NCBI GenBank assembly: GCA_046725875.1
Contig: JBKOZJ010000136.1
Coordinates: forward strand, 1 to 23,524
Direction of reading: 5' to 3'
Length of the DNA: 23,524 nucleotides
Origin: Actinomycetota bacterium
GTDB taxonomy: Bacteria; Actinomycetota; Actinomycetes; JAKEEW01
Part shown: positions 1 through 19,556 of the stretch, in pieces
Layout of the letters: every line of letters starts with the position of its first letter
Numbering within the stretch: position 1 is the first letter of the stretch
Made by a program: the position numbers and the translations under genes
The notes under the pieces: generated by a model
Told to the model about the DNA's origin: nothing
The model's input: only the letters and a program-made list of their open reading frames with translations
The model's database searches: none

Positions 1-2
1 GT

Positions 3-209
3 CTATGGCCCATCGGCGTAGTTTTCAGCCGCGAGGTTCAACCGAGCGCGGGCTCCGCGCTGCCCATTGTCTCCCCGCACCTTCGTATCATCGGTTCCGG
101 CGAGCGCCGCCCTTGTGTCCGGCCTCTCCAAGAGGTCGACCATTGCCTTTTGGACAACCTCGTCAACGTCGTCCATCTTGCGGCGGATGAAAGCACTTCG
201 GGCATGCAT
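3..209 (-). pseudogene. C-terminal fragment of a second large serine recombinase paralog (degenerate remnant; continues past the left window edge)
   Basis: The translation (MHARSAFIRRKMDDVDEVVQKAMVDLLERPDTRAALAG...NYADGP) aligns at about 60% identity to the zinc-ribbon/coiled-coil region (CFLRRKMADVDFVVEQAVLGLLERADTKAALAG...NYAEGL) of the intact recombinase at 282-1733. DNA similarity is visible between 150-235 and 690-790 and stops abruptly near 235. An in-frame stop lies 2 codons upstream of the first Met, and the CPRC zinc-ribbon cysteines are replaced. Confidence 0.6.
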
Positions 210-281
210 AGGCGTCTACCGTGCCATGGTGGCCAACCACTGAGTGCTAACGCCTCAGAGCTGAACCTCGTTCGCAGGCTC

Positions 282-1733
282 CTATTGGCTCCGTCGCGTG
301 ACCTGCGCTCCGAACAGGTCGTCCCTCTTTCCGGAGCCGAGCGGCTGGACCTTGACCTCGACGAGGACGCGGATAACCGCCCTCTTGCGGTCGAGCGATA
401 TCTCGCCGGTCTCCCACCGCCGGCGGATGTCAGGCGTAGTCAGGTCCATCAGGTCCGGGTGGGCTGACTGTGCGCGTGCCTCCGACTCGTACCTCTCCAG
501 CTCAGGGCGGAGCTTTGCCGTGATACGTGCGAGCTGCTCCCCGTCGATGAGCCCTTCTGCATAGTTGTCGGCTGCGACGTTGAGTCGTGCGCGCACGGCT
601 TCCGCGTTGTCGAGAGCTGCCTGCACCTGGGACTCGTCGGCTCCAGCGAGCGCCGCCTTCGTATCCGCGCGCTCCAGCAGCCCGAGAACAGCCTGTTCGA
701 CCACGAAGTCAACGTCGGCCATCTTTCGCCGCAGGAAGCACCTAGGGCATGAGTATGCGTTTATCGTGCCATGCTGCGGCTGGCCGACTAGGGACCGAAG
801 CGGTGTTGGCGGGTCGCAGCGGCCACACAGCGCGATCCCAGTAAGCAGATGCCTCCGGGCTGTGGTGCCGGGTCCACGATTGGCCTTCATGAGCGCCACC
901 AGCCGGTCGTACGTCGACTCGTCTACGATCGGCTCCCAATCGCCCTTGCCAATTACGGCGTTGCTTCCCTGCTTCGCCTGCTTGCGCTTCTGGTGGACGC
1001 GAAGACCAGCGTTGCGCTCCCGTAGAATGACTTGGCGGAGCATGGTGCCGTCCCATTCCTTGCCTCGTGGTGATGGGATGCAGCGCTTACTGAAGTCGGC
1101 GCTGATCGAGCGCTGGCTCTCACCTTCTAGAAGCCGCCTGATCGCCTCCCGGATGACGGCGGCTTGCTCGGGGTGGAGGATGTCACGGGAGCTGACGTAC
1201 CGGCCGTGTTCGTCAGACTCGACCACGCGCTGCCAGCCGTACGGCACGAAACCATGCGGTTTACCAGCCTCGGCGCGTTCCAGAGTCTTCCGTTGGATGC
1301 GGCGGCTCATTTGCTCCACCTCCAGCCGAGCGAAGACGCCCTTCATCCTGGCGTGCGCCCGGCCGCTCGGGGTGGCGAGATCGAATTCGCCACCCACGCT
1401 CGCTAGTGCGATCTGCTTCTTGTCCGCTAAGGCGATGATGTCTTCAAGCTCGCGAGGGGTACGGGTGAGTCGGTCAACGTCCCACACGATGAGCGCGTCG
1501 ATCTTGCCAGCGTCGATGTCCGCGAGGAGTCGCTGATAGTCGGGGCGGTCCTTGGCGTTGTAGGCGCTCCTGTCGTTGTCGACGTACAGAAGCTCGACCG
1601 GCTCGATCACGTCCCAGCCTTTAGCCCTCGCCAGCTTGCGGCAGTCTTCAATCTGGCGCTGAACACCCAGCGCTGTGCCCTCGTCATCCTTGCTGATCCG
1701 CGCGTAGATCGCGGCCCTAACCCAATCCATCAT
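282..1733 (-). CDS. large serine recombinase (integrase/resolvase family, 483 aa)
   Basis: The N-terminus has a resolvase-type catalytic domain (AAIYARISKDDEG...GVQRQ...DRLTR, catalytic Ser context), followed by the recombinase domain, a CxxC zinc ribbon (CGRC...CPRC) and a C-terminal coiled coil. GC content is lower than the surrounding genes. Confidence 0.9.
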   Translation of the reverse strand: MMDWVRAAIYARISKDDEGTALGVQRQIEDCRKLARAKGWDVIEPVELLYVDNDRSAYNAKDRPDYQRLLADIDAGKIDALIVWDVDRLTRTPRELEDIIALADKKQIALASVGGEFDLATPSGRAHARMKGVFARLEVEQMSRRIQRKTLERAEAGKPHGFVPYGWQRVVESDEHGRYVSSRDILHPEQAAVIREAIRRLLEGESQRSISADFSKRCIPSPRGKEWDGTMLRQVILRERNAGLRVHQKRKQAKQGSNAVIGKGDWEPIVDESTYDRLVALMKANRGPGTTARRHLLTGIALCGRCDPPTPLRSLVGQPQHGTINAYSCPRCFLRRKMADVDFVVEQAVLGLLERADTKAALAGADESQVQAALDNAEAVRARLNVAADNYAEGLIDGEQLARITAKLRPELERYESEARAQSAHPDLMDLTTPDIRRRWETGEISLDRKRAVIRVLVEVKVQPLGSGKRDDLFGAQVTRRSQ

Positions 1734-1861
1734 GGATCAGATGATACAGCGATGATGGCTCCGGTCGTCTTCATGATTCTGCCGCTCACAGTGATCTTCG
1801 CGCTGTTCCCAGGTTTCTACGGCTTCACCCTCACGTCCCCCTAGTTGGAGTCATGATGTTG

Positions 1862-2056
1862 ATGGAGACCATCGCGGCGCTCGTGCGCCGATTCTCGGCC
1901 CGGTTACCGGGTGGCCGATCCGATCGAGGCGACGTTCCCGGCTGGGTCCTGATCACGATCATGACGGCCGGCCTGGTCACGGCGCTCTGGGCGATTGCCG
2001 GTCCCAAGCTCGGCGAGCTGCTGACGGACGCGCTCGACTCCGTGACCGGACCGTGA
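1862..2056 (+). CDS. small Flp/DUF4244-like membrane protein of Tad pilus loci (start could also be 1853 or 1856)
   Basis: A roughly 65-aa protein with a charged N-terminus (RGD) followed by a single hydrophobic helix (PGWVLITIMTAGLVTALWAIAG). It is the first gene of a TadE/TadE/Tad cluster, as in actinobacterial tad operons. GGAG lies 11 nt upstream of the ATG at 1862. Confidence 0.5.
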   Translation: METIAALVRRFSARLPGGRSDRGDVPGWVLITIMTAGLVTALWAIAGPKLGELLTDALDSVTGP

Positions 2057-2080
2057 ACCGGAGCACTCACTCGGCCAGAA

Positions 2081-2494
2081 GTGGCTGCTGTTATGACCGG
2101 CGAGAACCACCGAATGCGTCCTTCCGCGGACCGGGGTGCGGCTGTCGTCGAATTCACCCTTGTGACGATCGTGCTTGTCGCTCTCTTCCTCGCCATCGTG
2201 CAGCTCGCCCTCGCGCTGTATGTGCGGAACACATTGGTCGCCGCCGCCGCTGAAGGCGCGCGGTATGCAGCCAACGCTGATCGGGACGTCGCCGATGGCG
2301 AAGCCCGCACACGCCAGCTGGTGTCAGCCTCGCTCGGCGATGGGTTCGCCGGGGACATTCGCGCGGGCCGCGTGATGGTGGACGGGGTGCCGACCGTGGT
2401 GGTTGAGGTCCGCGCCACGCTGCCGCTGGTCGGGCTGGCCGGCCCGGATCGCTTGCTCGTCGTGCGCGGACATGCCTTCGACGAGGAAGGTTAG
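2081..2494 (+). CDS. TadE-like pilus assembly protein
   Basis: N-terminal TadE signature DRGAAVVEFTLVTIVLVALFLAIVQLALALY...AAEGARYAA. The start is uncertain (GTG 2081 or ATG 2093). Confidence 0.75.
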   Translation: MAAVMTGENHRMRPSADRGAAVVEFTLVTIVLVALFLAIVQLALALYVRNTLVAAAAEGARYAANADRDVADGEARTRQLVSASLGDGFAGDIRAGRVMVDGVPTVVVEVRATLPLVGLAGPDRLLVVRGHAFDEEG

Positions 2495-2502
2495 GGAGCA
2501 GC

Positions 2503-3021
2503 GTGCAGCCCCCTCTGGCACGCGTTGGCGTGGTCATGCTGGCAATGCTCGATCCTGGCGATGCGTACGCGGAAGTCGGCGACGAGATCCGGTCTCGGCC
2601 CGATCAGGGGAGCGCGATTGTCGAGTTCTGCTTCCTGGCGCTGCTGCTGATGGTGCCTCTGGTCTACGTCGTGCTCGCGGTCTTCCGGGTCCAGGCCGAG
2701 GCGTACGGCATAACCGCAGCCGCCCGCGAGGCCGGCCGCGCCTTTGTCACAACGGATGAGTCGGTACTGGCGATGGATCGGGCTCGGGTAGCTGCATCGG
2801 TCGCCGCGGCGGACCACGGCGTCGAACTGCCGCCGGACGCGCTGACGATTTCCTGTAGTGCGCAGCCGTGCCTAACCGCGGGCGGCCGCGTGTACATCGC
2901 GATCGACGCGAGCGTGCCGCTGCCCTTCCTTCCGCCGGTACTGGGCGATCGGGCGGCTGCGTCCATTGCCGTACACGCTCGGCACACCGAGGTCGTGGAC
3001 ACCTATCGAATGGTGAACTAG
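2503..3021 (+). CDS. TadE-like pilus assembly protein (second copy)
   Basis: Motif GSAIVEFCFLALLLMVPLVYVVLAVFRVQAEAYGITAAAREAGRA. The GTG start at 2503 is preceded by GAGGAAGG/AGGGAG ribosome-binding sequences. The gene is translationally coupled to the upstream gene. Confidence 0.7.
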   Translation: MQPPLARVGVVMLAMLDPGDAYAEVGDEIRSRPDQGSAIVEFCFLALLLMVPLVYVVLAVFRVQAEAYGITAAAREAGRAFVTTDESVLAMDRARVAASVAAADHGVELPPDALTISCSAQPCLTAGGRVYIAIDASVPLPFLPPVLGDRAAASIAVHARHTEVVDTYRMVN

Positions 3022-3062
3022 TGAGAAGGCTCCATCTCCTGCGATTACGCCGCCCAAGCCGG

Positions 3063-3593
3063 GTGACCCACCGGCTGCAACGTCTCCAGCCAGCCAGCAG
3101 GATCCCTCGCTCCAATCCTGTCCGGGCACGGTGCTCTGCTACTGCGACCGCTAGTGACTGCGGTCAGGCCACGCTCCTTGTCATTGGCCTGGCCGTGGTC
3201 CTGGTCGCTCTGGTGGCGGTGGTCGTCGACGCCTCTCGGCTGTTCCTTTATCGACGGTCGCTCGCTACGGCGGCCGATGGCGCCGCCACCGCGGCGATCC
3301 AAGGCGTGCATGAAGCGGCGATCTATCGTGATCCGGACGCCTTCGCCGACGGAGCGTTACCGATCGATCCGTCGGCCGCAACGGCCGCTGTCCAGCGCTA
3401 CGCACAAGAAAACGATCTCACCGGGCGGTTCGACGATTTCGCCGTCCGGTCGGTGGCGGTAACCGGTACGACCACCGTAACGGTGATCTTCACCGCGACG
3501 GTCGATCTGCCGTTCACGGCAGCGGTCCCTTTAGGGTCCATCGAGCGGCCGCTGATCGTCGTCACCTCCTCAGCGCGGGCGCCGATCGGGTGA
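3063..3593 (+). CDS. Tad-domain (TadE/G-like N-terminal) pilus assembly protein
   Basis: The hydrophobic N-terminal segment followed by VVDASRLFLYRRSLATAADGAATAA matches the putative Flp-pilus assembly TadE/G-like N-terminal domain. The start is inferred at the in-frame GTG at 3063. Confidence 0.6.
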   Translation: MTHRLQRLQPASRIPRSNPVRARCSATATASDCGQATLLVIGLAVVLVALVAVVVDASRLFLYRRSLATAADGAATAAIQGVHEAAIYRDPDAFADGALPIDPSAATAAVQRYAQENDLTGRFDDFAVRSVAVTGTTTVTVIFTATVDLPFTAAVPLGSIERPLIVVTSSARAPIG

Positions 3594-3667
3594 CTTCGCG
3601 CGAGGATCGCCACGCCGCTTACCAGCGTTTCTGTCGTACCCACCGCGATCATCTAGGCTAGATAAGC

Positions 3668-4789
3668 GTGGCTGCCGTGTTTTCAACCGAGGAGATCAGG
3701 GATCTCGAGTCGACGCTGACGTCGATCGAATCCGTGCTCGACCTGGATTCGATGCGACGTGAGATTGCCGACCTCGAGACCCAGGCGGCCGACCCCGACC
3801 TGTGGAACGATCAAGAGCGTGCACCGCGGGTGACGAGCCGGCTGTCGTATCTCCAGGGTGAGCTCGCCCGGGTGTCGAGCCTGCGTCGCAGGCTCGACGA
3901 CCTCGGCGTGCTCGCCGAGCTCGCCGAGGCGGAGGATGACGCGTCCGCTCGGGCGGAGGCCGCCACTGAGCTGGCCACGCTGCGCAAGTCGATTAGCGAA
4001 CTCGAGGTCCGCACGTTGCTCTCCGGTGAGTACGACTCCCGGGAGGCGCTCGTCACGATCCGTGCCGAGGCTGGTGGTGCCGACGCCGCCGATTTCGCCG
4101 AGAACCTCATGCGTATGTATCTGCGCTGGGCCGAGCGGCACGGCTACCCGACCGAGATCTACGACGTGTCCTATGCGGAGGAGGCGGGGATCAAGTCCGC
4201 CACGTTCGCTGTGAAGGCCCCATACGCCTATGGCACGCTCTCGGTCGAGCAGGGAACGCATCGAATGGTGCGCATCTCCGCCTATGACAACCAGGGACGT
4301 CGGCAGACTTCGTTCGCCGGTGTCGAGGTACTGCCGGTCGTCGAGCAAAGCGACCACGTGGACATTCCCGAGGACGAGATCCGCATCGACGTCTTTCGGG
4401 CTAGTGGACCAGGCGGACAGGGTGTCAACACGACCGACTCCGCCGTCCGGATCACTCACTTGCCCACCGGCATCGTCGTCTCTTGTCAAAACGAGCGGTC
4501 GCAGCTGCAGAACAAGGCGCGCGCGATGGAGGTTCTCCGGGCGAAGCTGCTCGAGCGGCGCCGGCAGGAGGAGCAGGCGAAGCTAGACGCTCTAAAGGGG
4601 GACTCCGCCGGATCGTGGGGCACCCAGATGCGGTCGTATGTGCTGCATCCGTATCAGATGGTGAAAGACCTTCGGACCGAGTACGAGACCGGCAATACCG
4701 CTGCCGTCCTTGACGGCGAAATCGACGATCTCATCGAGGCCGGCATCCGCTGGCGGCGCCAGCAGCAGCGCAGCACCGCCGCTGCCTAG
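3668..4789 (+). CDS. prfB: peptide chain release factor 2
   Basis: GGQ motif ([11 protein letters not shown]) and RF2-type conserved blocks ([52 protein letters not shown]). The frame is uninterrupted (no programmed +1 frameshift) with a GTG start. Confidence 0.95.
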
Positions 4790-4820: not shown

Positions 4821-6020
4821 CTAGTGAGCAGCCTTCTCGGACGTGACCCGTTTTGCGGGCATCCGGCGCTGATCAGCGCCCGCGGTGGCTGGACTCGTTG
4901 GGACAGCTGACGGCGGTGTCATGTTCCTTTTCACCGCGTCGAGAATGCTCATTCCCTGCGCGACGAGTCCGGCTGAGATCTCTCCCAGACCATCGGCGCC
5001 GTTGAGGATGCTGACGTTGGCCCGGGCCAAACCGTTGGCCGCCTCCTTGACGATCTGAGGCAGTTGATCGATGAGCATTCGCTCGAGCGCCACTCGATCG
5101 TTGGAGGCTGCTGCCTCGGCCTGTATGGTCATCCGCTCGGCGTCCGCCTGGGCCAATAGCCGGATTCGCTCCGCGTCAGCCTCCGCAGGCTTGACGACCT
5201 CGGCGACCAACTGTTGCTGCCGGAGCACGGCCGCTCGTTCCGCGAGTTCGGTCTGGGCGGCCACCACGTCCCGCTGAGAATGTGCCTGAGCAAGCGGACC
5301 GGACTGAGCGGCCTCGGCCTGGGCTCGGTCCACTTCCGCCTTGTATTGCGCCTGGACGATGGCGGTCTGCCGGGCATATTCGGCCTGCCTCCGCTGTGCC
5401 TCCTGCTCGGCCTCGGCGGCTGCCTGGGTGGCCTGCGCCTGGGCGATCTTCGCCTGCCGCTGGATTGCTGCGTTATGCGGCGCAGCCATAGCATCGATAT
5501 AGCCGGCGTCGCCGTCGTCGATGGACTGGATCTGCAGTGAATCAATGGTCAGGCCGATCTTCGCCATCTCCGCCTTAGACCCGTCAAGGACCTCCTCCGC
5601 GAGCTTCTGTCGCTCTGTAACAATCTCCTCGACTGTCATCGAGCCAACGATCGACCGCAGGTGACCGGCGAAGATGCGGCCGGTCAGCGTGGCCATCTGA
5701 TCCTGGTTCGAGAGGAAACGCTGTCCGGCGTTGACGATGCTCTCGACGTCGGAGCCGACCTTGAAGGCGATGACGGCGCGTACATTCAGCGAAATCCCTT
5801 GCCTCGTCACGCAGGTCTCGGCGACCTCAGCCTCCTGCATCGAAAGGGTCAGGAACCGCACCTTACGAAAGATCGGCAATACCCAAGCCCCGTGTCCGGT
5901 GACGACGCGGAATGGGGTTCCGGCAGGAGCTCGTTTTCCGCCCGAGATGAGCATTGCCTGGTCGGGCGACGGCACCTTGTACCCGAACATCTTGCGGCCT
6001 CCTGGGACTCCGTCAGTCAT
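4821..6020 (-). CDS. flotillin-like SPFH/band-7 protein (alternative start at Met codon about 5990, giving MFGYKVP...)
   Basis: N-terminal SPFH core (MFGYKVPSPDQAMLISGGKR...FRVVTGHGAWVLPIF) followed by a long Ala/Glu/Gln-rich coiled-coil region typical of flotillins. Confidence 0.88.
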   Translation of the reverse strand: MTDGVPGGRKMFGYKVPSPDQAMLISGGKRAPAGTPFRVVTGHGAWVLPIFRKVRFLTLSMQEAEVAETCVTRQGISLNVRAVIAFKVGSDVESIVNAGQRFLSNQDQMATLTGRIFAGHLRSIVGSMTVEEIVTERQKLAEEVLDGSKAEMAKIGLTIDSLQIQSIDDGDAGYIDAMAAPHNAAIQRQAKIAQAQATQAAAEAEQEAQRRQAEYARQTAIVQAQYKAEVDRAQAEAAQSGPLAQAHSQRDVVAAQTELAERAAVLRQQQLVAEVVKPAEADAERIRLLAQADAERMTIQAEAAASNDRVALERMLIDQLPQIVKEAANGLARANVSILNGADGLGEISAGLVAQGMSILDAVKRNMTPPSAVPTSPATAGADQRRMPAKRVTSEKAAH

Positions 6021-6389: not shown

Positions 6390-6583
6390 GATCTGTGACC
6401 TGCAGTTAGTCACGGAAGGTAAACGAATGACGAATGGCTGATCGCGAATTGATCGGTCGGATGATGGCATTCGTCGCTGATCTTCCCTAGCCTGCTGCCC
6501 GCTCGGGTCCTCCGCATAACACGGACGGCCCCGCATGCGATTTATCGAGAAGAAGCTGACCGTCCAACACTCCCTTGGGGGAC
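6390..6583 (+). promoter_or_regulatory. conserved promoter/5' leader block of LPXTG gene 1 (paralogous to 7465-7661)
   Basis: About 80% nucleotide identity to the region upstream of the second LPXTG gene across roughly 200 bp, including the AGTTnGTnAC...AGGTnAACGnAATnACGAAnGG and CGGATGATGGCAT...CCTGCTGnCCGCTCGGG...TAACACGGACGGCCCCG...TGCGATTTAnCGAGAAGAAGCT blocks. GGGGGAC lies just before the start codon. Confidence 0.5.
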
Positions 6584-7306
6584 GTGGTGTCATTAGCCAG
6601 GAAGCTTGCAGCGATCGCCGGCGGCTCGGTCCTCGGGATTATGGCTGCCATTGCGACCGCCAGTCCGGCCGCCGCGCAGGATGCTGATCCGCCCGGCAAC
6701 AACGGCACGATCAAGGTTGACAACGAACCGTTCGACTCGCATCCCAATAACCAGCCACACGTCGGATGCGTGTTCGAGATTGACTTCTACGGATACGACG
6801 AGGGCGACCTGTCCGCCGACGTCACCTTCGAGGCGCACGCACCCACGACCCGTGAGGACGACGACCAGGTCCTGCTGACAGACACAGTCTTCATCGGCGA
6901 GGACGCCGCCGGCGGCGGCACCGACCTGGACGCCTCAAGACAGTACACATTGGACTTCACCGGCATCACGCCACACTCCAAGCAGGGCTTCCACGTCAAG
7001 CTCACCATCAACGCCGAGGGTTCGATCGGCGCTGCCCTGAAGCACAAGGTCTTCTGGGTGACGGGCTGTGTCCCAACCGAGACACCGTCGAACGGGACAC
7101 CGTCGAACGGGACACCGTCGAACGGGACACCGTCGAACGGGACACCGGGTGGCGGGGCACCGCCGGGCGGTGAGGTCCTGCCAAAGACGGGCTCTGGGTT
7201 CCCCGTAGGCAACGCTGCGCTCCTGGCCATCTTCCTACTGGCAGCCGGCGGCGCACTGCTCGTCTCACGTGGAGTGATTCAGCTGCCCTACCGCCGCAGG
7301 CACTGA
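6584..7306 (+). CDS. LPXTG-anchored cell-surface protein 1 (sortase substrate); TTG 6575 or GTG 6587 are alternative starts
   Basis: It has a signal peptide (VVSLARKLAAIAGGSVLGIMAAIATASPAAAQDA) and a roughly 130-aa mature domain with 2 Cys. A (TPSNG)x4 stalk is followed by LPKTG, a hydrophobic segment (AALLAIFLLAAGGALLV) and a basic tail (YRRRH). Confidence 0.85.
   Translation: MVSLARKLAAIAGGSVLGIMAAIATASPAAAQDADPPGNNGTIKVDNEPFDSHPNNQPHVGCVFEIDFYGYDEGDLSADVTFEAHAPTTREDDDQVLLTDTVFIGEDAAGGGTDLDASRQYTLDFTGITPHSKQGFHVKLTINAEGSIGAALKHKVFWVTGCVPTETPSNGTPSNGTPSNGTPSNGTPGGGAPPGGEVLPKTGSGFPVGNAALLAIFLLAAGGALLVSRGVIQLPYRRRH
7081..7155 (+). repeat. perfect 15-bp tandem repeat gacaccgtcgaacgg x4 plus one degenerate unit (encodes TPSNG repeats)
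   Basis: Four identical units span 7081-7140 and a diverged fifth follows. The array is in-frame within the stalk of LPXTG protein 1. Confidence 0.9.
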
Positions 7307-7464: not shown

Positions 7465-7661
7465 GTGGCTGACCGTAGTTGGTGACATTAGGTGAACGGA
7501 ATAACGAACGGTCGACCCCTACGTAGACCGCTCGGATGATGGCATCCGTTGCCCGTCTCGCCCTAACCTGCTGTCCGCTCGGGGTTCTTCGTGTAACACG
7601 GACGGCCCCGTGTGCGATTTACCGAGAAGAAGCTCGTCATCCACACACATCCCCGGGGGAC
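7465..7661 (+). promoter_or_regulatory. conserved promoter/5' leader block of LPXTG gene 2 (paralogous to 6390-6583)
   Basis: Same conserved blocks as the gene-1 leader. Local hairpins: ggatg-atgg-catcc, cgggg-N22-ccccg and cgag-aagaag-ctcg. Confidence 0.5.
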
Positions 7662-8351
7662 GTGGTGTTAATACGTAGGAAGATCGCAACCATAGGTGGC
7701 GGTTTGCTGCTCGGCACACTGGCGGCGGCCCTAACAGCGGGTCCGGCCCACGCCGACGGCACCGTGGTGCCGGACAACCCGACCTGCTCCGACTTGATCC
7801 CGGGCTCGACCGAGCTGAAGGTCGAGCCGGTGGCCGATGGCACGTTCACCACGGACGGGTTCTCGGTAACTTTGGACGTCCGGATGCTAACCGCCGACGA
7901 CCCCCAGCATGCGGGCGACCAGACCGGTAGCCAGGTGGTCGACTTCACCGCCACCGGCGGCACCGTTATCGGTGTTGTGGTTAAGGGCGGACCGACAGCC
8001 AACTTCTACGACTACCGCCCGGCTGGGGTAACCAGCGGCACAGGCCTGCACGCGCCGGCTCTGGATCAGCAGAATAACCAGAAGTTCGCCGGGCTCAGCC
8101 ACATCTCGTTCTGCTTCGCGCCGCCAACGACGACCACGACGAGCGCGCCACCCACGACGACGAGCGCGCCACCCACGACGACGACTCCGCCGGCCCCGAC
8201 GTCACCACTGCCCACGACGCTGCCGAAGACAGGCACTGGGTTCCCGGTGGGCTCGGCCGCTCTGTTCGCGGTGTTCTTGCTCGCAGTGGGCGGCGGCGCG
8301 CTGCTCCTCTCCCGCGGTGGTATCCAGCTGCCGTACCGCCGCAAGCACTAA
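7662..8351 (+). CDS. LPXTG-anchored cell-surface protein 2 (paralogous ends, unrelated mature domain); GTG 7665 alternative start
   Basis: It has a signal peptide (VVLIRRKIATIGGGLLLGTLAAALTAGPAHADG) and a distinct mature domain with 2 Cys. A Thr/Pro-rich stalk (PPTTTTTSAPPTTTSAPPTTTTPPAPTSPLPTT) is followed by LPKTG, a hydrophobic segment and YRRKH. The upstream Met at 7536 is unlikely because the region encodes no signal peptide and aligns to the non-coding leader of gene 1. Confidence 0.85.
   Translation: MVLIRRKIATIGGGLLLGTLAAALTAGPAHADGTVVPDNPTCSDLIPGSTELKVEPVADGTFTTDGFSVTLDVRMLTADDPQHAGDQTGSQVVDFTATGGTVIGVVVKGGPTANFYDYRPAGVTSGTGLHAPALDQQNNQKFAGLSHISFCFAPPTTTTTSAPPTTTSAPPTTTTPPAPTSPLPTTLPKTGTGFPVGSAALFAVFLLAVGGGALLLSRGGIQLPYRRKH
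8136..8177 (+). repeat. 21-bp tandem repeat acgacgagcgcgccacccacg x2 (PTTTSAP units) in the stalk of LPXTG protein 2
   Basis: Two identical 21-nt units, followed by a diverged third unit. Confidence 0.8.
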
Positions 8352-9551: not shown

Positions 9552-10475
9552 ATGCGACTCCGGTTCGTCTTTCAGGAAATAGGCATCGGCCTGCGCCGCA
9601 ACCTGACCATGACGCTCGCGGTCGTCATCAGCGTCGCCGTGTCGCTGAGCTTGTTCGGTGTTGCGCTGCTGGTGCGTTCGCAGGTCGACACGATGAAGGA
9701 CTACTGGTACGACAAGGTCGAGGTGTCGATCTTCCTCTGCAACCAGAAGTCGCAGAGCGTCGCCGGCTGCGCGGGCGGCGCGGCGACGAAGGAGCAGAGC
9801 GCGGCGATTCGCGCTGACCTGGAGAAGATGCAAGGACCAAGCGGACTGGTCAAGAAGATCTACTTCGAGGACAAGGCAACCGCTTACGAGCGCGTGAAGG
9901 AGCAGTTCAAGAACTCTCCGATCGCCGAGTTCGTCACGCCGGACCAGATGCAGGATTCCTACCGGGTCAAGCTGACCGATCCAACGAAGTATGAGGTTGT
10001 CGCCGAGCAATTCCAGGGCCGCCCCGGGGTCAACGCCGTGCAGGACCAGCGCCGCATCCTCGACCCGTTCTTCGCGATCCTGAAGGCCTTCCAGTACGGG
10101 GCTGCCGCCGTCGCGGTGGTCATGCTTTTCGTGGCCGTATTGCTCATTGGCAACACAATGCGGCTGGCTGCGTTCAGCCGCCGCCGGGAGACCGGAATCA
10201 TGCGACTTGTCGGCGCCTCGAACTTCTATATCCAGCTGCCGTTCCTCGCCGAGGGCGCGGTGGCGGGCTTCGTCGGCGCCGCGGTCGCCTCGGTCGCAGT
10301 CATCCTGCTAAAGGCGGTCGGCATCGATCACTTTGTCGCTCCCAATGTGCAGATCACTCAGAGTTGGGTCGGTTGGGACGCGGTGATCCAGACGCTAGTC
10401 ACGTTGTTCGCATTCGGCGTTGCCATGGCGGTCATCGCCTCCTTCATCACCTTGCGGAAATACCTGCGGGTCTAG
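9552..10475 (+). CDS. ftsX: cell division permease-like protein FtsX
   Basis: An N-terminal TM segment, a large extracellular loop and three C-terminal TM helices. It lies immediately downstream of ftsE. Confidence 0.9.
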   Translation: MRLRFVFQEIGIGLRRNLTMTLAVVISVAVSLSLFGVALLVRSQVDTMKDYWYDKVEVSIFLCNQKSQSVAGCAGGAATKEQSAAIRADLEKMQGPSGLVKKIYFEDKATAYERVKEQFKNSPIAEFVTPDQMQDSYRVKLTDPTKYEVVAEQFQGRPGVNAVQDQRRILDPFFAILKAFQYGAAAVAVVMLFVAVLLIGNTMRLAAFSRRRETGIMRLVGASNFYIQLPFLAEGAVAGFVGAAVASVAVILLKAVGIDHFVAPNVQITQSWVGWDAVIQTLVTLFAFGVAMAVIASFITLRKYLRV

Positions 10476-18656: not shown

Positions 18657-18839
18657 TGGCACCCCACCCGGTCGTAGGTTCGTCTCGATAACAGTGTTGC
18701 AGGGCAATGATGAAGCAGAGGTCGCGCTTCGAACACCACCGTTGACGTGCCAGAATCCACGGCCAACGATCGTGGTGGAGGATCTCTTGGCTAGGCGCGC
18801 GCCGGTGTGCGGACGCCGCAAAGAGGCTGGAGGAGTGGC

Positions 18840-19556
18840 ATGCACGTGGTGACAATCTCCGCTGCGTACGGTGCCGGTGGGAGCGTCGTCGGGCCGGCAG
18901 TCGCCGAACGCCTCGGCGTGCCGTTCGTCGATAGGGCCATTCCCGAAGCCGTGGCTGCCGAGATCGGCTGTTCGCTCGACGCCGCGCTCGCACATGACGG
19001 GCGGAGCGAGCCGGGGATCGGAAGGTTGTTCGCCGCCACCGCCCGGGTGCCGAACATCGCCCTGGGAGGCCTGGAGAGCTACTTGCCGCCGCAGGAGATC
19101 ATCGCCGAGGAGGAGTTCGTCCGGCGCACTGAGGAGCTCATCTGCCGGGTCGCCGACACGACGGGTGGGGTCATCCTCGGCCGTGCGGCGGCAATCGTCC
19201 TGGCCAGGCGTCCCGAAGTGCTGCACGTTCGGCTTACTGGTCCCGAGGATGCCCGGGTCCTGCAGGCGATCCACCTATATGGCCGGGACGCGGAGTCGGA
19301 GTGGCGACGGCTGCGGGAGAACGATCGGGCGCGCGCAGCCTACGTCAAGCACTTTTACCGAGCCGATGCGACCGACCCGAAGTACTACCACCTCGTGGTC
19401 GACAGCACGGCGATCCCGTTGGAGACGGTGACCGCCCTCGTCGTCACCGCAGCCCAGGGTTTCCGGCCAAAAATCGCGGAGCAGGACAAGGCCTCCGACG
19501 TTGCTCGCGATCGCTGGACCCATCGTCGAGCGCCCAGCCGCTTAAGGCGCGGATGA
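18840..19556 (+). CDS. cytidylate kinase-like family (AAA/P-loop) protein
   Basis: MHVVTISAAYGAGGSVVGPAVAERLGVPFVDRAI is the typical N-terminus of this family. GGAGGAG lies 8 nt upstream of the ATG at 18840. Confidence 0.7.
   Translation: MHVVTISAAYGAGGSVVGPAVAERLGVPFVDRAIPEAVAAEIGCSLDAALAHDGRSEPGIGRLFAATARVPNIALGGLESYLPPQEIIAEEEFVRRTEELICRVADTTGGVILGRAAAIVLARRPEVLHVRLTGPEDARVLQAIHLYGRDAESEWRRLRENDRARAAYVKHFYRADATDPKYYHLVVDSTAIPLETVTALVVTAAQGFRPKIAEQDKASDVARDRWTHRRAPSRLRRG

Follow-up and report, generated by a model that had tools for sequence, protein, structure and literature searches.

Locus Organization

The window analyzed here is a complete metagenome-assembled contig of 23,524 nucleotides (nt) from an Actinomycetota bacterium (JBKOZJ010000136.1). 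Its left end carries an intact gene for a large serine recombinase (LSR), here called LSR_A, beside the broken remains of a second one. On the other side of LSR_A lies the detached 3' end of tadC, which encodes a platform protein of the Tad pilus, and the pilus genes and prfB follow (Table 1). Positions 1..1762 are best read as the right-hand end of a mobile element that entered the 3' end of tadC within an actinomycete Tad-pilus locus, with LSR_A as its predicted working integrase. Because the window is the whole contig, its left edge is the contig end, which cuts the fragment and leaves the rest of the element out of view. A first-pass annotation of the window, made before any database search, had likewise suggested that the remainder of the element may lie to the left, and our comparisons support this.

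TABLE 1. Features of the window, with positions counted from its first nucleotide.
Feature	Position	Strand	Basis
LSR_B-type large serine recombinase pseudogene fragment	1..253	minus	homology to LSR_A and to P0002/L002; left side cut by contig end
Putative illegitimate-recombination junction, LSR_A 3' flank/LSR_B interior	246..255	.	end of synteny and start of homology
LSR_A 3' flank, 27 nt, conserved with L002	255..281	minus	alignment with L002
LSR_A, large serine recombinase/serine integrase, 483 amino acids	282..1733	minus	Pfam, PHROG, homologues
attR of the integrated element	1734..1790	.	empty-site comparison and geometry in L006/L007
Element-derived P arm of attR	1734-1748		
Block common to intact tadC (GCGATGATGGCTCC); B' arm runs on into the tadC remnant	begins 1749		
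Displaced tadC 3' end, last ~30 codons (MMAPVVFMILPLTVIFALFPGFYGFTLTSP), terminal transmembrane helix	1752..1844	plus	match to TadC C-terminus
Chromosomal context right of the element	1853..4789	plus	gene order as in empty-site loci L010-L013
flp-like pilin	1853..2056	plus	same gene order as empty-site loci
TadE	2081..2494	plus	Pfam
Two more Tad pseudopilin-like genes	between TadE and prfB	plus	Pfam TadE/Tad search of the region
prfB	3668..4789	plus	homologues of release factor 2
SPFH/flotillin gene	4821-6020	minus	Pfam; directly after prfB
tmRNA gene, tag ANAKRADFALAA	14778-15152		downstream of the prfB … SmpB cluster

The Intact Integrase

LSR_A has the catalytic domain, the Recombinase domain, and the four-cysteine zinc ribbon of a large serine recombinase, and it lies at the edge of the element beside the att junction. 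It matches the Pfam families Resolvase (PF00239, 6.4e-31, residues 7-158) and Recombinase (PF07508, 2.7e-15); PF13408 is not among the Pfam entries listed for this protein (P0001). It also matches PHROG 95, “integrase” (8e-94), and is 33-36% identical to actinobacteriophage serine integrases from Mycobacterium and Gordonia phages. PDB chain 9iu2 (“Integrase”), whose sequence we take to be that of Bxb1 integrase, can be aligned to residues 6-416, and residues 301-416 align with its zinc-ribbon/coiled-coil region. The presumed catalytic residue, read from the sequence, is Ser14 in a YARIS motif. The zinc-ribbon cysteines are C303/C306 (CGRC, 303-306) and C329/C332 (CPRC, 329-332), and the coiled coil spans about residues 335-420. 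Judged from its reading frame and Pfam domains, the gene looks intact, as the first-pass annotation had stated.

Close relatives of LSR_A are few. Among 5.8 billion proteins there was only one (P0002, 82% amino acid identity), encoded on a contig of 4,033 nt (L002). The exact LSR_A product was not on record in look-ups, a scan of the genome collection returned a 27%-identical Collinsella gene as the sole match, and a scan of IMG/VR gave no match.

The Integrase Fragment and Its Origin

Window positions 1..231 match positions 543..777, inside LSR_A, with 72% nt identity and single-base gaps (blastn, E=4e-29). In blastx the fragment is 58% identical in amino acids to LSR_A residues 332-394 and 75% identical to P0002. 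With the frameshifts corrected, it covers the second half of the zinc ribbon plus most of the coiled coil, equivalent to LSR_A residues ~313-397 and to codons ~312-396 of a 480-residue integrase. It has no sequence for residues 1-311 and lacks the catalytic domain, the recombinase domain, and the first cysteine pair.

Read on the minus strand, the fragment presents a TAG stop at 249..247, then HSVVGHHGTVDAYACPKCF, a +1 shift at 192, IRRKMDDVDEVVQKAMVDLLERPDTRAALAGTDDTKV, and further shifts. Compared with L002, four insertions or deletions (indels) break the frame (+1 at 192, +1 at 76, -4 at 53, and -1 at 7), and another, of -6 at 232, keeps it. Because of the stop codon and the four frameshifts, the fragment is considered nonfunctional as a recombinase, and it appears to be a dead relic that does nothing now. 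A silent cassette or alternative C-terminus was considered and ruled out by the four frameshifts and by the lack of any such fragment in the relatives.

These results agree largely with the first-pass annotation, which had described the decayed remains of a serine recombinase gene different from the first and about 60% identical to it, running from the zinc ribbon to the coiled coil and preceded by a stop. Its report that the CPxC cysteines had been lost was mistaken. The residues ACPKCF are encoded at 207..190 (CPKC at 204..193), in the frame upstream of the +1 insertion at 192, and the earlier reading had followed only the frame downstream of it.

The origin of the fragment is indicated by contig L002, which has the same layout as the window, with tad genes, a short spacer, and the integrase. 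The two contigs are collinear over window positions 2059 to 255, reaching 27 nt beyond the LSR_A stop codon, and the two host backgrounds share 69-76% nt identity in the adjacent tad/prfB genes. The fragment matches L002:3158-3391 with 88-91% nt identity. Over the same alignment columns, it is 90.7% identical (206/227) to the L002 integrase gene and 71.4% identical to LSR_A, while LSR_A and the L002 integrase gene are 73.7% identical to each other. The fragment is thus far nearer to the L002 integrase than to its neighbor, and this comparison indicates that it descends from an allele of the L002 type (LSR_B), belonging to the same tadC-specific integrase, and did not arise by divergence from LSR_A.

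In L002, a convergent open reading frame for 142 amino acids lies downstream of the integrase gene (L002:3533-3961, minus strand) and overlaps its 3' end by 113 nt. It has no Pfam record and no PHROG match, and the 27-nt flank conserved with the window falls inside it. It may be either a real gene, such as one for an excision factor, or an antisense reading frame of GC-rich DNA.

The Junction between LSR_A and the Fragment

Past the LSR_A stop codon, the window and L002 have in common GCGAACGAG(G/A)TTCAGCTCTGA and diverge at window position 255/254; the core of this flank (GCGAACGAGGTTCAGCTCTGA) is identical to L002:3653-3673 at 20 of 21 positions. In-frame homology of the fragment to the L002 integrase gene starts at ~246-253. 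Together, the end of synteny and the start of homology appear to locate the join to within about ten bases (~246-255). The simplest account is that one illegitimate (non-site-specific) recombination made this join, ~27 nt after the LSR_A stop.

The first-pass annotation had also seen a sharp end of homology but had put it near 235, whereas the alignment with L002 continues in frame to ~246-253. Its view that the 5' boundary of the fragment is an old recombination junction is supported. Its further suggestion that 235-281 might be an att site is not: in local alignments of 215-295 with the attR region (1734-1795), 179 of 500 shuffles reached the observed score, and the real attR lies upstream of the integrase ATG (~1734-1790).

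Several smaller coincidences near the junction were set aside. The 8-mer TGGCTCCG occurs at both 286-293 and 1756-1763; it is not conserved in L002 and was treated as chance. A 9-nt microhomology between the L002 3' flank and the fragment (GGCCACCAT) was not established as the crossover, since in-frame homology extends 15-20 nt further. One blastx alignment carried the fragment to position 282, and its part beyond 255 is better explained by the conserved LSR_A 3' flank.

The Target Gene and attR

The chromosomal side of LSR_A was compared with four close host relatives (L010-L013; release factor 2 is 94% identical), in which the tadA-tadB-tadC-flp-tadE…prfB locus is uninterrupted. Homology of the window to their tadC genes starts at 1749 (GCGATGATG…), so everything to the left of ~1749-1762 is inserted DNA. 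The product of the short reading frame beside LSR_A (MMAPVVFMILPLTVIFALFPGFYGFTLTSP) matches the C-terminus of the intact 309-residue TadC in L012 (…REIAMMLPVVFLIMPVTVIFALFPGFYGLTFTTS), and a 30-residue remnant at the distal edge of the L004 island matches it as well.

The empty-site comparison places the att junction at 1749-1762, which is 15-29 nt from the LSR_A start codon. The window, L006, and L007 all have a CC dinucleotide 28-29 nt upstream of the integrase ATG, and in the L006 and L007 elements it is common to both junctions. Its constant distance and its presence at both junctions suggest that the crossover likely occurred near the CC at window 1761-1762. The element arm of attR resembles the chromosomal arm at 14 of 20 positions, with the inner nine identical, as is expected from shared recombinase-domain binding motifs. 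The predicted attB would be the reconstituted tadC with GAGATCGCGATGATG…CCGGT, and the predicted attP would be 1734-1762 joined to the far arm.

The junction between LSR_A and tadC was independently assembled in a Joint Genome Institute (JGI) metagenome contig, L009, which starts at window position 1721. L009 is 99.35% identical to the window, with 20 substitutions and no gaps over 3,074 nt, which indicates that the window is not generally noisy in indels. L009 derives from the same population, which is present in JGI samples 3300082970 and 3300086434. It stops 13 nt inside the integrase gene, 1.7 kb short of the point where the window contig ends. Variants or excised forms, for example, may make the element region heterogeneous or unevenly covered in the population.

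Related Integrases at tadC

Nine integrases were sampled: those of the window, L002-L007, L014, and L015/L016, the last being two assemblies with the same integrase (P0061). Every one of the nine sits between tadC and flp of a Tad-pilus locus, usually beside prfB. The seven more distant members (L003-L007, L014, and L015/L016) are 47-53% identical. A tblastn search of the eight other occupied loci found no second LSR and no LSR relic.

Elements with both ends visible are 8-9 kb long and encode a major capsid protein, a small terminase, and WhiB-like and other small proteins. The L003 element has a D5-type primase, and a tape-measure gene in L014 points to a larger prophage. Both junctions are present in L004, L006, and L007, where the fused TadC ends in a few foreign residues (five or six in L006 and L007) and the native last ~30 codons lie at the opposite end of the element.

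The integrase lies on the tadC side in L003, L004, and L005, and on the flp side, as in the window, in L006 (Nakamurella antarctica), L007 (Arthrobacter sp.), L014 (N. panacisegetis), and L015/L016. It abuts the 5' part of tadC in L003-L005 and the displaced 3' end in the window, L002, L006, L007, and L014-L016. The tadC core (…ATGATGG..CC…) is accordingly used in two opposite orientations (L004:9940-10010 and 18780-18960 against L006/L007:9830-10013 and window 1721-1790). These two arrangements indicate that sub-lineages with ~50% identity carry attP in opposite orientations with respect to the integrase gene. In the attP reconstructed for N. antarctica (L006:18440-18520 and 9855-10013), a perfect 6-bp inverted repeat, TTGACA-cccagc-TGTCAA, surrounds the inferred crossover. 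Judged by these junctions, the L006 island offers a clean candidate attP/attB pair from a cultured strain.

Origin of the Arrangement

We consider it probable that the left end of the window is the end of an element integrated in tadC, that LSR_A is its integrase, and that the LSR_B relic was joined illegitimately to the 3' side of LSR_A. Recombination by the serine integrase would have put the element into the 3' end of tadC. With attP directly upstream of the LSR_A ATG, integration would leave LSR_A abutting attR and the orphaned last ~30 codons of tadC. A single illegitimate recombination would then account for the joining of the LSR_A 3' flank to codon ~312 of LSR_B.

Two routes could lead to this join. 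We lean slightly toward the first, in which a B-type element had its integrase end substituted by an A-type attP-integrase module. The substitution may have taken place while the two elements were co-resident, or it may have used homology in the tad flank together with an illegitimate join on the left. In the second, which we rate a little below even, an A-type element integrated beside a resident B-type element, and a deletion then removed the body of the A element together with the 5' two-thirds of LSR_B. The route, the order of events, and the mobility of this copy of LSR_A are deduced from the arrangement and should be taken as provisional.

Several points weigh against this explanation. 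The second route in particular is weakened, because it requires entry into an occupied site and attL and attR are not normally targets of serine integrases, although the two arms of attR here do resemble each other. The left part of the element is off the contig, and only the integrase end is visible. The join between LSR_A and the fragment is known from one contig, no more than 255 nt from its end, and exact-pattern scans of JGI metagenome contigs gave no match either to the junction or to the B-type allele. For a pseudogene, the fragment has a high proportion of indels to substitutions (5 to 21), which could partly reflect sequence quality at the contig end.

The same points bear on an assembly artefact, in which the last ~250 nt would be chimeric or of low quality, with, for example, the B-type integrase of a co-occurring strain misjoined and the frameshifts being errors. 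The fragment does lie at the very end of a metagenome-assembled contig with a high density of indels, the junction was not recovered in JGI contigs, and L009, from the same population, also breaks in the integrase region (at 1721), which suggests either assembly trouble or population heterogeneity. However, the gap-free agreement of the rest of the window with the independent L009 assembly over 3,074 nt shows that the assembly is not prone to indels, there is no long identical k-mer common to both sides of the junction that could mislead a de Bruijn assembler, and a living B-type gene from another strain would not have four frameshifts and a stop. We regard an artefact as unlikely.

A remnant of a two-recombinase operon, with a co-operating pair like CcrA/CcrB of the staphylococcal cassette chromosomes (SCC) and a decayed second gene, would explain why the fragment lies immediately downstream of LSR_A in the same orientation. 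Such a pairing is not conserved in the eight related occupied loci, where a second LSR is absent. The second gene is here a fragment whose 5' two-thirds have been deleted outright, and its nearest relative, the single integrase of L002, occupies the place that LSR_A has here, which marks the two as alleles and not as subunits of a pair. This origin is very unlikely, and for the same reasons the decayed tandem recombinase array proposed in the first-pass annotation fails: the other loci hold neither a second LSR nor a relic, and the fragment is an allele (91% nt identity to L002), not a partner paralog.

Duplication in situ of part of the integrase 3' region, with later divergence and decay, is slightly less likely again. 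It would account for two adjacent homologous copies in the same orientation, but the fragment is closer to an integrase from another genome than to its neighbor, and the neighbor is itself about as distant from that foreign gene as from the fragment. This pattern of identities fits two alleles acquired separately, not a local duplication.

The least probable origin is a simple nested insertion of an LSR_A element into an older integrase gene with ~235-281 as the att junction, the other proposal of the first-pass annotation: a broken recombinase gene does adjoin another, but LSR_A is bordered on its other side by the displaced 3' end of tadC and not by the missing 5' part of LSR_B, and the junction has no att similarity. 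An integrase-only mini-element (255..1762, 1.5 kb) was rejected as well, since it would need an attP joining 1762 to 255, whose arms, by inspection with no formal test, show no dyad symmetry of the kind evident in the L006 attP (TTGACA…TGTCAA).

Other Features of the Window

By synteny with L010, the cluster upstream of the tmRNA (transfer-messenger RNA) gene runs from prfB through an FtsE-like ABC ATPase, FtsX, and an M23 peptidase to SmpB. The Arthrobacter locus (L007) has a tyrosine integrase immediately past smpB. The SPFH/flotillin gene is also present in L008, and none is called after prfB in L010 and L011; it is therefore variable between close relatives.

Two adjacent genes, at 6575-7306 and 7536-8351, encode proteins of 243 and 271 amino acids with no Pfam match. 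Each cross-matches the position of the other in L008 with ~73% nt identity, and for this reason they appear to be diverged tandem paralogs. One gene is called in this interval in L011 and two in L010.

Significance and Comparison with Known Systems

LSR_A and the relic belong to known kinds, namely the serine integrase of an integrated actinobacterial element and an integrase relic beside it, and the arrangement is a commonplace trace of the turnover of mobile elements at an integration hot spot. It indicates that one chromosome brought together two alleles of a single site-specific integrase. With the att site and the target gene located, there is a candidate attB/attP pair for LSR_A, a new enzyme of a type used as a tool in genome engineering.

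The conserved set of elements inserting into tadC may affect Tad-pilus function in environmental actinomycetes. Cultured Nakamurella and Arthrobacter strains are among the carriers, including N. antarctica (CP034170) and Arthrobacter sp. (JBHVYH010000001). Integration takes off the terminal transmembrane helix of TadC and separates tadABC from flp-tadE, which could switch the pilus off until excision. The literature searched, with incomplete coverage, contained no description of tadC as a target of serine integrases or prophages. Tentatively, the elements may form an undescribed family that uses one position near the end of tadC in both orientations and includes phiRv1-like capsid islands as well as a prophage. 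If so, they might be excision-dependent switches of Tad pili, which are organelles of surface attachment, DNA uptake, or phage reception, and the relic in the window would record two elements competing for a single site. We hold this broader proposal to be doubtful as a whole. The tadC-targeting integrases are a moderately interesting by-product of the analysis and may be worth a specialist's look.

LSR_A has the same domain order as the Bxb1-type serine integrases of actinobacteriophages (PDB 9iu2, mycobacteriophage Kumao gp96), with a resolvase catalytic domain, a recombinase domain, a CxxC…CxxC zinc ribbon, and a coiled coil. The att site directly upstream of the gene and integration into a protein-coding gene are further likenesses. 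Bxb1 integrates into groEL1. LSR_A differs from the phage integrases in its low identity (33-36%) and in its target, tadC.

The prophage-like element phiRv1 of Mycobacterium tuberculosis integrates into REP13E12 repeats, and it has the same gene set as the islands of the LSR_A relatives (integrase, capsid, terminase, and primase). These islands are phiRv1-like in that their 8-9 kb encode a serine integrase along with a small terminase and a major capsid protein, and in some cases a D5-type primase as well; no tail genes were detected in them. Elements of the LSR_A family differ from phiRv1 in integrating into tadC, and L014 is a larger prophage with a tape-measure gene. phiRv1 and similar small prophage-like elements have been reported as satellites of the PICI (phage-inducible chromosomal island) type in Mycobacterium (PMC10085698). 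L004, L006, and L007 fit the definition of such satellites as small elements of ~8-15 kb that join an integrase to capsid/packaging or replication genes and have neither a tail nor a lysis module, and the window shows the integrase end only.

Tandem SCC elements at orfX, which are moved by Ccr serine recombinases, offer a parallel for the relic. There too, successive or competing elements at one target leave partial recombinase genes and hybrid islands. The likeness between the two arms of attR recalls SCC composite islands, which are systems that regenerate a usable target. Unlike these composites, the window has no visible tandem element and holds one junction and one relic only.

Elements that interrupt a host gene and are excised by serine recombinases, such as skin (SpoIVCA) and SPbeta (SprA), are known as cases of regulated gene integrity (PMC7192596). 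The element in the window likewise splits a host gene and parts tadABC from flp-tadE. In contrast to skin and SPbeta, it displaces only the ~30 C-terminal codons of tadC.

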